Assembly: GCF_013167455.1 (NCBI RefSeq)
Contig: NZ_CP038328.1
Strand: one strand, 5' to 3'
Length of the DNA: 64,000 nucleotides
DNA from: Escherichia coli O157:H7
Lineage (GTDB): Bacteria > Pseudomonadota > Gammaproteobacteria > Enterobacterales > Enterobacteriaceae
Positions 1 to 3,000 of the stretch are shown here, one piece after another. The number at the start of each line of letters is the position of its first letter. Position 1 is the stretch's first letter. Position numbers: made by a program.

Positions 1-3000
1 TTTCATATTCTGAGTTAATCAATAACGGCGCAGTCTAGCCTTGTTCTGGCCGGAAAGGTCAGCTTTTTCAGGTTAACCTCGCGCAGGTCAGTCATACCAA
101 CGGCTATTGTTCGTTTCAGCATTGCTCAGGTCAACCTCGAGACAGTCAATACCACAAATGACAACCCCGTTAAAGTAAGCATTACTCAGATCAATCCCCC
201 CGGTCCTGGTGCTCTTTTTCAGCTGCAACTCCAGAGTAAATATCGCCTCATCGCCAATAAAAAAACTGACGCATAACGTACCTTCTGGCGAGAGTGAGGC
301 CTTCGCGGCCATATTTTCCGGATCTTTTGCGTATTCTTTGAGTTCATTAAATTTTATCAGCCAGTGAGTTAACTTATCACGCGCCTTCCCGTCGACAGCC
401 CCGGTAAAGTATTTTGAGTAGTCATCACTATTCTGGAAATAAAATGCATCCTTCAGAATTTGCCTTGCCGCAGTCTGGGAATGTTTATCTGACTGGAAGA
501 GATTGCGTAACGTCTCCCATAGCTCTTCAAAGATATTCATATTCTCGGTCTTTTTGACCAAGTTAGCCATCCTGATAATCTGAGAATTAGTAAGGCCTGG
601 ATCTTTAGTGGTATTACTAGCAGGGATACTAATCTGTTCTGGGTTTCTTACTTTCATGCTGATAGCTCCACTCTGAATAAAAAACTCAGAATAAGCGTCC
701 TGAATAAGAATACTGTCAAAAATCGCTCATTCACGCAATAAACGGTTACGTTACCTATTTTGACTGTAGCGAAGGGATTCTTTCGGATCAACGCTCTCCA
801 GATATGCAAATACGCTCTTGATAGCTGAACGAATATTGGCTTTTTTAATACGCCTTCTCTATGGATTGCTGGTTGATAACAAAATCACTACACTAACGCC
901 GTTCTCAACGGGGTGCCACGCGGACGCGTGCGCTGAGAAAATACCCGTCGAACCTGATCCGGATAACGCCGGCGAAGGGATTTGAGGCTCCTTCTCAAGT
1001 CCTTTGCCACTCTTTTTTGAGGTGCAAAGTGTTAAAAAAATGTCTTCCCCTGCTGTTGCTGTGCACAGCGCCCGTTTTCGCTAAACCCGTTCTGACTGTT
1101 TATACCTACGATTCCTTCGCCGCCGACTGGGGGCCTGGTCCGGTGGTTAAAAAAGCCTTTGAAGCCGACTGTAATTGCGAACTGAAACTGGTGGCGCTGG
1201 AAGATGGCGTTTCGCTTCTCAACCGTCTACGGATGGAAGGCAAAAACAGTAAAGCCGATGTGGTGCTGGGGCTGGATAACAATCTGTTAGACGCCGCCAG
1301 TAAAACCGGACTGTTTGCCAAAAGCGGTGTGGCAGCGGATGCCGTTAACGTTCCCGGCGGCTGGAATAATGACATTTTCGTACCGTTTGATTATGGCTAC
1401 TTCGCCTTCGTTTATGACAAGAACAAACTGAAAAACCCGCCACAAAGCCTGAAAGAACTGGTTGAGAGCGATCAAAACTGGCGGGTGATTTATCAGGATC
1501 CGCGCACCAGTACACCGGGGCTGGGTCTGTTGCTATGGATGCAAAAAGTCTATGGCGATGACGCCCCACAAGCCTGGCAGAAACTGGCGAAGAAAACGGT
1601 CACGGTCACCAAAGGCTGGAGCGAAGCCTACGGCCTGTTTTTAAAAGGTGAAAGCGATCTGGTACTGAGTTACACCACCTCTCCGGCTTATCACATTCTC
1701 GAAGAGAAGAAAGATAACTACGCCGCCGCGAACTTCAGCGAAGGTCACTATCTGCAAGTGGAAGTCGCCGCTCGCACCGCTGCCAGCAAGCAGCCGGAGC
1801 TGGCGCAAAAATTCCTCCAGTTTATGGTTTCTCCGGCTTTCCAGAATGCGATCCCAACCGGCAACTGGATGTATCCGGTGGCAAACGTCACGCTGCCTGC
1901 CGGTTTTGAAAAATTGACCAAACCCGCAACCACGCTGGAGTTCACGCCAGCCGAAGTGGCGGCACAACGTCAGGCATGGATTAGCGAATGGCAACGCGCC
2001 GTCAGCCGTTAATTCCCGGCTGGTTAATTCCAGGTGTAAGCGCCGCCACGCTGGTGGTAGCGGTTGCGCTGGCGGCGTTTCTCGCCCTGTGGTGGAACGC
2101 GCCGCAGGGTGACTGGTCGGCAGTCTGGCAGGACAGCTACCTGTGGCATGTGGTGCGCTTCTCCTTCTGGCAGGCGTTTCTCTCGGCGCTACTCTCTGTC
2201 GTACCCGCGATATTCCTCGCCCGCGCGCTCTATCGCAGGCGCTTTCCGGGTCGGCTGGCGCTGTTGCGTCTGTGCGCAATGACCTTGATCCTCCCGGTGC
2301 TGGTTGCTGTTTTCGGCATTCTTAGCGTCTATGGTCGCCAGGGCTGGCTGGCATCGCTCTGCCAATCGCTCGGTCTGGAGTGGACCTTTTCGCCCTACGG
2401 CCTGCAAGGCATTTTGCTGGCCCATGTGTTTTTTAATCTGCCGATGGCGAGCCGCTTATTACTCCAGGCACTGGAAAACATTCCCGGCGAACAACGTCAG
2501 CTTGCCGCCCAGCTTGGGATGCGCGGCTGGCATTTTTTCCGCTTCGTCGAATGGCCGTGGTTACGGCGACAAATCCCGCCGGTTACCGCGCTTATCTTTA
2601 TGCTCTGTTTCGCCAGCTTCGCCACCGTGTTATCGCTGGGCGGCGGTCCGCAGGCAACCACTATCGAGCTGGCAATCTATCAGGCGCTGAGTTACGACTA
2701 CGATCCTGCCCGCGCGGCGATGCTGGCGCTGATCCAGATGGTGTGTTGCCTTGGGCTGGTGCTGTTGAGTCAGCGACTGAGTAAGGCCATTGCGCCCGGC
2801 ACCACGCTGCTGCAAGGCTGGCGCGACCCGGACGATCGTCTGCATAGCCGCATTTGCGACACGATGTTAATTGTGCTGGCGCTGCTGCTGTTGCTGCCAC
2901 CGTTGCTGGCGGTGATCGTCGATGGGGTAAATCGCCAGTTGCCGGAAGTGCTGGCACAACCGGTGCTGTGGCAGGCGCTGTGGACCTCGTTGCGTATTGC

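Follow-up and report, generated by a model that had tools for sequence, protein, structure and literature searches.

An intact thiamin pyrophosphate riboswitch leads the thiBPQ operon beside an espY2 effector islet in Escherichia coli O157:H7

The segment at 899-998 of the window (the whole 64,000-nucleotide stretch of contig NZ_CP038328.1 that was analysed) is, with a probability of about 93%, the E. coli thiB (tbpA) TPP riboswitch in the 5′ UTR of thiBPQ, with the published mechanism of P1, sequestering and antisequestering stems. The element is already known as the well-studied thiamin pyrophosphate sensor of the thiamin-uptake operon thiBPQ, and it is intact and ordinary. It adds nothing to riboswitch biology, because this TPP riboswitch belongs to the three that are textbook examples in E. 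coli, and its mechanism has already been dissected. Direct observations of this analysis are family membership, the pairing potential and conservation of all the helices, and an intact element beside espY2; the features are collected in Table 1.

The Rfam search of the entire 64 kb on both strands (cmscan) returned a single TPP match, RF00059 at 899-998 (+), covering model positions 1-105 of 105 without truncation; it scores 65.8 bits (gathering score 54.3) with an E value of 1.1e-10, far beyond chance. RefSeq carries 'TPP riboswitch' on the identical 100 nt both in K-12 and in a strain of 99.9% identity. Pairwise alignment and structure mapping showed that the leader at 864-1045 is the K-12 leader except for G923 (T in K-12), which falls in the P3 apical loop; since no other base departs from K-12 between 864 and the thiB start, this is the thiB/tbpA riboswitch, alias SroA, that has been characterised by experiment. 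These three lines of evidence bear out the first-pass annotation, which had placed a TPP riboswitch in the thiBPQ leader and had proposed the RF00059 search. All the motif strings that it quoted lie where it put them, GGGGTGCC at 910-917, CTGAGA at 933-938, ACCCGTCGAACCTGATCCGGATAACGCCGGCGAAGGGA at 943-980, TTGAGGCTCCTTCTCAAGTCC at 982-1002 and TTTTTTGAGG at 1013-1022, and its span of 903-985 closely approximates the aptamer from the 5′ strand of P1 (904-908) to its 3′ strand (982-986). CTGAGA and ACCCGTCGAACCTGATCCGGATAACGCCGGCGAAGGGA supply the thi-box core, that is, CUGAGA in J3-2 for the pyrimidine-sensor arm and ACCUGAUC...GGAUAAU/C...GCG.AGGGA for the pyrophosphate-sensor arm (P4/P5). 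The riboswitch lies on the same strand as thiB-thiP-thiQ, in their 5′ UTR and with 43 nt between the end of P1 and the GTG at 1029, and a TPP riboswitch in the thiB leader is common to 78 other species.

Conservation was assessed in other Enterobacteriaceae, using 50 distinct leaders. Pairing in the OFF structure held in 97.5% of cells, with covariation in P3, and each helix of the three-way junction (P1 / P2-P3 / P4-P5) was 92.6-100% paired. Two-sided changes occurred at three P3 pairs; P1, P2, P4 and P5 were essentially invariant and therefore uninformative for covariation, and the thi-box core columns were likewise invariant. The K-12 RNA binds TPP and switches conformation with a Kswitch of ~227 nM, as followed by smFRET and RNase H probing (PMC8609307), and shows a TPP-dependent toeprint loss (PMC11487190). 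TPP binding and repression in the espY2-type strain are probably as in K-12, given a leader that differs at one loop base.

As a separate observation on P3, mobile ERIC-type repeats were found inside the loop of this riboswitch hairpin in other genera, such as Citrobacter or Klebsiella; one further leader carries an ERIC repeat in the loop of the sequestering hairpin. The full-size P3 copies tested lower the Rfam score below standard annotation thresholds, a point of modest value.

Table 1. Features of the thiBPQ leader, the operon and the adjoining islet, in window coordinates
Feature	Position	Strand	Basis
espY2, T3SS effector EspY2, 189 aa, islet cargo, divergent from thiB	88-657	-	ORF, RefSeq of 99.9%-identical strain
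Right junction of espY2 islet	863/864	.	Megablast, pairwise alignments
Likely -35 TTGCTG, putative thiBPQ/sroA promoter	866-871	+	17 nt from -10
Likely -10 TACACT, putative	889-894	+	6-7 nt upstream of published transcription start
thiBPQ/SroA transcription start	900-901	+	Homology to K-12 and Salmonella
TPP aptamer	904-986	+	RF00059 alignment
Aptamer P1	904-908:982-986	+	RF00059 alignment
Aptamer P2	909-912,914:941,944-947	+	RF00059 alignment
Aptamer P3	915-933	+	RF00059 alignment
Sole leader difference from K-12 (G for T, P3 apical loop)	923	+	Alignment
thi-box CUGAGA	933-938	+	RF00059 alignment
Aptamer P4	953-955:976-978	+	RF00059 alignment
Aptamer P5	959-962:969-972	+	RF00059 alignment
Anti-P1 / antisequestering stem (ON)	971-1008 (971-973 + 975-986 with 994-1008)	+	Energy, conservation, published mutants/SHAPE
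SD-sequestering hairpin (OFF)	1002-1029 (1002-1007:1024-1029, 1010-1012:1019-1021)	+	MFE and constrained folds, conservation
Shine-Dalgarno GAGG	1019-1022	+	Published G121C mutant; conservation
thiB (tbpA), thiamin/TPP-binding periplasmic protein, GTG start	1029-2012	+	ORF, RefSeq
thiP, ABC transporter permease	1988-3598	+	ORF, RefSeq
thiQ, ABC transporter ATPase, last operon gene	3582-4280	+	ORF, RefSeq

A consensus promoter scan of 600-1200 called nothing; TTGCTG/TACACT was missed because only 8/12 positions match, which is under the threshold. The promoter was thus placed from the published transcription start and conservation, and we infer this placement as the likely one. Escherichia, Citrobacter and Salmonella share the form TTGC(T/C)G at -35, and every genus inspected has TACACT or TACAAT equally far from P1. 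In the numbering of Grondin 2024, the U of GUG is nucleotide 130 (PMC11487190), so that +1 corresponds to position 901 of the window, and 5′ RACE in Salmonella put the start 129 nt upstream of GTG (PMC3511261). On these published K-12 and Salmonella starts, the operon start assigned by the first-pass annotation appears to be confirmed, which fixes the beginning of thiBPQ for annotation of the window.

The expression platform contains two helices that exclude each other. The SD GAG and the first G of GUG are occluded by the hairpin 1002-1012:1019-1029, whose stem has a computed helix energy of -11.6 kcal/mol and is 95.8% paired in the 50 leaders, with a compensatory change of C1012-G1019 to U-A where the SD is AAGG; the AGG of the SD is invariant across the set. 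The antisequestering stem, which overlaps P1 at 982-986 and the sequestering stem at 1002-1008, reaches -20.8 kcal/mol in its extended form and is 99.7% paired, yet nearly invariant. An SD hairpin mutually exclusive with a P1-competing helix is the arrangement of a thiB/thiM-type translational OFF switch. Covariation is uninformative for P1, the antisequestering helix and the lower sequestering helix, whose columns are almost invariant in the Enterobacteriaceae sampled; outside P3 its support is thin because most of these pairs do not vary, and comes from one pair in four related sequences.

ViennaRNA folds contained both the sequestering and the anti-P1 hairpin. In the unconstrained MFE structure the sequestering hairpin stands together with a short anti-P1 hairpin. 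A 'mixed' state has -42.7 kcal/mol, below the -32.8 kcal/mol of the ON state with a fully open SD; all computed ensembles, with P1 enforced or not, predict a paired SD GAG, and the fold z-score is only -1.9. The folding proposed at first pass thus recovered the sequestering hairpin in MFE and constrained folds, but neither unconstrained nor P1-constrained folds reproduced a clean ON/OFF pair, so the mechanism is not argued from thermodynamics alone. That the downstream sequence sequesters the ribosome-binding site, as the same annotation suggested, has been experimentally shown for the K-12 sequence (PMC10578472, PMC11487190). Its downstream hairpin stands, with the SD partner refined to CUUUGCCACUC at 1002-1012, inside the part that it had elided; the TTGAGG/CTCAA pairing that it quoted belongs instead to the anti-P1 hairpin.

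The mechanism would run as follows. A weak sigma-70 promoter (-35 at 866-871, -10 at 889-894) would drive the operon from about 900/901, and TPP would be captured by the nascent aptamer in a short interval while RNA polymerase is still in the leader; the published pauses at 104/117/136 (PMC8609307, Chauvier 2021) would fall at 1004, 1017 and 1036 of the window. With TPP bound, P1 (904-908:982-986) would be kept closed and the linker 987-1001 left single-stranded; 1002-1012 would then fold onto 1019-1029 and bury the SD GAG together with the first base of GUG, so that 30S binding and thiB translation would decrease. Operon mRNA would subsequently fall too, by less than translation. Without TPP, the linker CUCAA (994-998) would invade the 3′ strand of P1, and the helix would grow to 971-986:994-1008, so that the sequestering hairpin would lose its 5′ strand and the SD would be freed. 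For K-12 thiB, Berman 2023 reported translational repression and SHAPE-based folding models, and found that a mutation weakening the sequestering stem abolishes TPP repression, that linker nts 95-99 are essential, and that the antisequestering stem is backed by both mutational and SHAPE evidence (PMC10578472). Grondin 2024 added toeprinting and cotranscriptional sensing, and found that the aptamer point mutation G35C (window 935) abolishes regulation, that G121C (window 1021) abolishes expression, and that TPP represses by a modest 2.3-3.9-fold (PMC11487190). Published work suggests that the decision is kinetic and made cotranscriptionally.

The place of mRNA-level control is a matter on which two laboratories disagree (PMC10578472 vs PMC11487190). 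TPP lowers the expression of transcriptional lacZ fusions 1.6-3.9-fold, and mRNA is still repressed 2.4-fold when GUG is mutated to GAG (PMC11487190), as would be expected if the main output were operon mRNA, lowered by premature termination or RNase E decay, instead of translation initiation. We consider this unlikely, since the repression is unchanged by bicyclomycin, transcription in vitro yields full-length product only (PMC10578472), and the mRNA effect depends on an intact SD and so seems to be a consequence of ribosome binding. The terminator scan of 600-1200 found no intrinsic terminator and no terminator-like site with a GC-rich hairpin and U-tract, the U-run at 1013-1018 being the loop of the sequestering hairpin rather than a terminator tail. 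An attenuator-type, transcription-terminating platform was therefore rejected, in agreement with the full-length product in vitro (PMC10578472). Within the translational reading, the mRNA effect is best read as a secondary layer over translational control.

A second question is whether the islet, while sparing the riboswitch, has altered what drives the operon. K-12-type sequence resumes at 864, at the stop codon of K-12 sgrR, and K-12-type genomes match only 864-1100 by Megablast; the right end of the islet thus stands 2 nt upstream of the likely -35 hexamer. In the leaders of the 78 species, sgrR ends 47-62 nt before aptamer P2 in the large majority of measurable species, and the espY2 form is therefore derived; an espY2 homologue is absent from the loci of all 80 other species. 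On sequence comparison, the espY2 islet is evidently a real insertion of ~1 kb into the ancestral sgrR-thiB junction, found in this arrangement in 1033/5426 complete genomes. In the pairwise alignments, the search for a target-site duplication at the islet junctions yielded only a 4-nt GGAT repeat, probably by chance. The first-pass annotation was right that the effector insertion left the riboswitch intact, and the islet entered without damage to the operon core promoter or the RNA sensor.

That promoter strength or silencing could nevertheless differ from K-12 finds some encouragement in the position of the junction (863/864, 2 nt from the -35 hexamer), in the AT-rich foreign DNA, with TTTTTTAATA at -60 to -51, that has taken the place of all sequence upstream of -37, in a GC content of 39% at 501-900 vs 51-53% in the leader and early thiB, in the divergent espY2 start 243 bp away, and in the separation of thiB from sgrR read-through. 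However, neither core promoter nor leader has changed, those 1033 genomes carry the arrangement stably, and the natural thiBPQ promoter is weak anyway (PMC11487190); an altered operon drive is accordingly judged improbable. A further idea, with little chance of holding, starts from the islet end 2 nt upstream of the -35: in E. coli of the EHEC type the islet would have rewired thiBPQ control on the promoter side and left the riboswitch untouched. From -38 upstream, the sgrR 3′ end would here have given way to a divergent effector promoter and to DNA that is AT-rich and possibly responsive to H-NS/Ler. If true, the regulation of thiamin import could be tied to that of the virulence genes, or else shielded from it.

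The aptamer part of the riboswitch is also known as the small RNA SroA, which we take, following the K-12 annotation, to occupy 901-993 of the window. Its ends are only approximately supported (PMC3511261). We doubt strongly that this ~93-100-nt fragment (SroA/sYJ20) acts mainly as a small RNA in trans, with a secondary role in cis, even though northern blots show a stable species of ~100 nt, SroA/sYJ20 rises under tigecycline or tetracycline in Salmonella, and deletion of sYJ20 affects survival mildly, an effect that can be complemented in trans (PMC3511261). It has no validated target, E. coli did not show the induction seen in Salmonella (PMC3511261), the deletion also takes out the cis regulator of thiBPQ, and the cis function has been directly shown (PMC10578472, PMC11487190).

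Direct masking of the ribosome-binding site by a helix between the linker CUCAA/UCUCAA (993-998) and the SD UUGAGG (1017-1022), with the P1 3′ strand as competitor, is the pairing that the strings quoted at first pass suggest, but it is hardly credible: UCUCAA (903, 993) and UUGAGG (982, 1017) each occur twice, so the complementarity is real, but the helix, at -2.5 kcal/mol, is weaker than the local hairpin at -11.6, is never selected in constrained folds, and is paired in only 73.7% of cells across the 50 leaders, with A997-U1018 broken in 15 and A998-U1017 in 26 of them, all uncompensated. An SD of AAGG breaks it, whereas the local hairpin compensates. The CUCAA(994-998):UUGAG(1017-1021) helix was rejected for its weak energy and for pairing not kept across species. 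According to Berman et al., the linker lacks complementarity to the sequestering stem, and the switch is stuck in the OFF state once nts 95-99 are deleted or randomised (PMC10578472), whereas losing an anti-SD should have the reverse effect; this broken-OFF phenotype largely refutes the direct pairing. In the comparison across leaders, the local sequestering hairpin of the literature thus fares better than the CUCAA:SD pairing that intuition suggests, a result that is also of modest value.

Read as the translational thiB riboswitch, the element can be compared with the three known E. coli systems. K-12 thiB (tbpA)/SroA is the same locus, with the same sequence from the -35 to thiB codon 6 except for one P3-loop base, and shares P1, anti-P1, the sequestering helices and the GUG start. 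It differs in that the window has G923 for T and that the espY2 islet replaces the sgrR 3′ end upstream of -37, so sgrR ends ~1 kb away here; sgrR also carries one extra codon. E. coli thiM, the crystal-structure model and likewise translational, shares the aptamer class, the secondary structure and SD sequestration after P1 stabilisation (PMC11487190, PMC8609307), but serves a different operon (thiMD, salvage kinases) with another expression-platform sequence. Its mRNA-level effect needs 34 codons, whereas 12 suffice for thiB (PMC11487190), and it uses Rho, whereas thiB is unaffected by bicyclomycin (PMC10578472). E. coli thiC is larger, its aptamer alone suffices for Rho-dependent mRNA control, and its cotranscriptional folding intermediates differ from those of thiB; like thiB, it senses TPP cotranscriptionally, in a pause-delimited window that is closed by an anti-P1 stem (PMC11487190).

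Scanned with cmscan against Rfam 15, the whole window has a single TPP riboswitch (RF00059) match, at 899-998 on the plus strand, which covers the full model at 65.8 bits (E = 1.1e-10; gathering score 54.3) and is not due to chance. This bears out the first-pass annotation, which had proposed a TPP riboswitch in the thiBPQ leader and whose cited motif strings were all found in place by position lookup. Elsewhere in the window, an ES003 sRNA (RF02750) match at 47331-47383 on the minus strand scored 87.4 bits (gathering score 37) and is identical to the model consensus at 53/53 positions.

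Positions of features in and around the thiB leader (window coordinates, unless a fetched thiB-region locus, L-number, is named)
Feature	Position	Strand	Basis
Left islet junction (outside the window)	L001:5853-5860		
Right islet junction	863/864		
Candidate -35 hexamer TTGCTG	866-871	+	inferred
Candidate -10 hexamer TACACT	889-894	+	inferred
P1	904-908:982-986	+	Rfam alignment
P2	909-912,914:941,944-947	+	Rfam alignment
GGGGTGCC	910-917	+	
P3 (short form)	915-933	+	Rfam alignment
CTGAGA (thi-box)	933-938	+	
ACCCGTCGAACCTGATCCGGATAACGCCGGCGAAGGGA (long block)	943-980	+	
P4	953-955:976-978	+	Rfam alignment
P5	959-962:969-972	+	Rfam alignment
Anti-P1 hairpin	979-987:993-1001	+	ViennaRNA
TTGAGGCTCCTTCTCAAGTCC	982-1002	+	
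SD-sequestering hairpin	1002-1007:1024-1029 + 1010-1012:1019-1021	+	ViennaRNA
TTTTTTGAGG	1013-1022	+	
SD GAGG	1019-1022	+	
Extended P3, other species	L028:2210-2352; L010:2137-2279; L044:2134-2350; 18 further loci		

The window is E. coli DNA: of 5426 complete E. coli genomes, 1033 align with at least 80% of its first 1100 bases and are annotated with espY2 (a T3SS effector gene), the riboswitch and thiB; the remaining genomes, K-12 included, match from 864 onward only. The RefSeq order in a 99.9%-identical strain is leuABCD, sgrT, sgrR, espY2 (opposite strand), TPP riboswitch, thiB, thiP, thiQ, yabI and araC, and in K-12 the sgrR stop codon directly precedes the riboswitch promoter. The insertion point of the espY2 islet falls precisely between the final sense codon of sgrR and the putative -35 hexamer of thiB. 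The islet extends sgrR by one codon at its left junction (CCA GAG TAG vs CCA TGA) and has no clear target-site duplication at its junctions, only a 4-nt GGAT repeat. Among the leaders of 78 other enterobacterial species, the distance from the end of sgrR to P2 is 47-62 nt in the large majority of measurable cases, and none of the 80 loci fetched from other species encodes an EspY2 homologue, indicating that the islet is an insertion of ~1 kb and the espY2 arrangement the derived one. Longer gaps were seen in Salmonella enterica subsp. diarizonae (194 nt, L024) and in the loci L067 (185 nt) and L059 (98 nt), that of L067 holding an ERIC-like repeat copy (2195-2264); insertions seem to recur at the sgrR/thiB junction.

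In the K-12 leader numbering, the U of GUG is 130 and the SD G is 121 (PMC11487190), which places +1 at 901; 5′ RACE in Salmonella gave a start 129 nt upstream of GTG (PMC3511261). The putative hexamers are spaced by 17 nt, and TACACT or TACAAT is kept at the same distance in all genera inspected. The thiB promoter was not called by a consensus promoter scanner, and its poor match (8/12 positions) is in keeping with the reported low activity of the natural promoter (PMC11487190). With its right end 2 nt upstream of the putative -35 hexamer, the islet would leave the core promoter and the entire leader untouched. Aligned pairwise with the K-12 form, the sequence from 864 across the leader and on into thiB differs at just two places, G923 (T in K-12) in the apical loop of P3 and one synonymous-region change in thiB codon 6, in agreement with the earlier proposal that the insertion left the riboswitch intact. 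From -38 upstream the DNA is foreign (39% GC), and the islet supplies an A/T tract (TTTTTTAATA, 841-850) at about -60 to -51, where a UP element would sit. That the islet alters thiBPQ promoter behaviour in EHEC-type strains, as could be argued from its abutting the -35 hexamer and from the AT-rich DNA and divergent effector promoter that it adds, appears very improbable to us.

Through the K-12 leader, TPP represses translation, a response that is lost upon a weakening mutation in the local 'sequestering stem'; in vitro there is no intrinsic termination and bicyclomycin has no effect, and loss of the linker CUCAA (994-998) locks the switch OFF (Berman et al., PMC10578472), because the linker pairs with the 3′ strand of P1 as an antisequestering stem. 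Chauvier et al. (PMC8609307) reported a Kswitch of ~227 nM and pauses at 104, 117 and 136 (window 1004, 1017 and 1036), with the sensing window between the first two. According to Grondin et al. (PMC11487190), the 30S toeprint is lost with TPP, repression is 2.3-3.9-fold, cotranscriptional binding is preferred, and the mRNA level also falls in an SD-dependent manner, a layer on which the two laboratories (PMC10578472, PMC11487190) disagree. By analogy, the leader in the window, one loop base apart from that of K-12, probably works by the same mechanism.

The predicted sequestering hairpin buries the GAG of the SD and the G (1029) of the GUG start. The anti-P1 hairpin is predicted to be extendable to 971-986:994-1008 (-20.8 kcal/mol), which would use up the 5′ strand of the SD hairpin (-11.6 kcal/mol). 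In the ligand-free ViennaRNA minimum, the short anti-P1 and sequestering hairpins coexist; the latter forms with or without P1 enforced, and pairing of the SD GAG is predicted in every ensemble computed, consistent with the reports of low basal translation and a modest dynamic range. Thermodynamic folding alone thus predicts no clean switch, in agreement with a kinetic decision during transcription. At equilibrium the modelled switch looks leaky towards OFF, which fits the report that the leader fusion is expressed ~6-fold less than the promoter-only fusion (Grondin et al., PMC11487190). A scan of 600-1200 gave no intrinsic terminator, and the thiB element is not an intrinsic-terminator riboswitch.

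The helices were compared across species by counting pairs for three structures in an alignment of 50 distinct short-P3 leaders, drawn from the 80 fetched loci, 78 of which have one thi-box upstream of thiB. The OFF structure (P1-P5 plus the sequestering hairpin) is paired in 97.5% of cells, with three P3 pairs altered on both sides; within it, the sequestering hairpin reaches 95.8% and shows one compensatory change, C1012-G1019 to U-A, in the four leaders with an AAGG SD. The extended antisequestering stem is paired in 99.7% of cells and nearly invariant, which is conservation, not covariation. A direct CUCAA(994-998):UUGAG(1017-1021) helix is paired in 73.7% of cells, its variable pairs being broken in 15/50 and 26/50 leaders without compensation, AAGG species included; it is worth only -2.5 kcal/mol and is contradicted by the linker deletion, which is broken-OFF rather than broken-ON (PMC10578472). 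The first-pass annotation was thus right that downstream sequence sequesters the ribosome-binding site, but the sequestering element is 1002-1012 and not the CUCAA box; UCUCAA (903, 993) and UUGAGG (982, 1017) each occur twice, which explains why a direct anti-SD was suspected.

In 21 of the 78 species' thiB leaders, a longer palindrome takes the place of the P3 hairpin, which is short in the window. For 12 of these species (Citrobacter, Raoultella, Pseudocitrobacter and others) the palindrome is an element of 135-219 nt, predicted to fold into a single long hairpin (-58 to -103 kcal/mol). The element is dispersed in E. coli, each genome having a median of 12 unannotated copies, and we take it to be ERIC-like from the ERIC primer sites that it bears. 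The three full-size-insert leaders scanned (L028, L010, L044) all lacked a TPP match at the gathering score, and with L028 at 50.1 bits (below 54.3) and its 5′ boundary misplaced, standard annotation would miss such riboswitches. In Citrobacter sp. wls619 (L010), a second, inverted copy (2360-2490) lies within the loop of the SD-sequestering hairpin, with GCCACC on one side and the SD on the other, stretching the CTGAGA-to-GTG distance from ~97 nt to 222 nt. P3 insertions fit the larger SroA species remarked in Klebsiella (PMC3511261); our search of the literature turned up no description of an ERIC element within a riboswitch.

Every feature of the TPP riboswitch family that could be tested here was found in the leader, and TPP binding has been demonstrated for the K-12 RNA, which differs at one loop base (PMC8609307, PMC11487190). 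Beyond mere similarity, the element is the already known E. coli thiB/tbpA TPP riboswitch itself.
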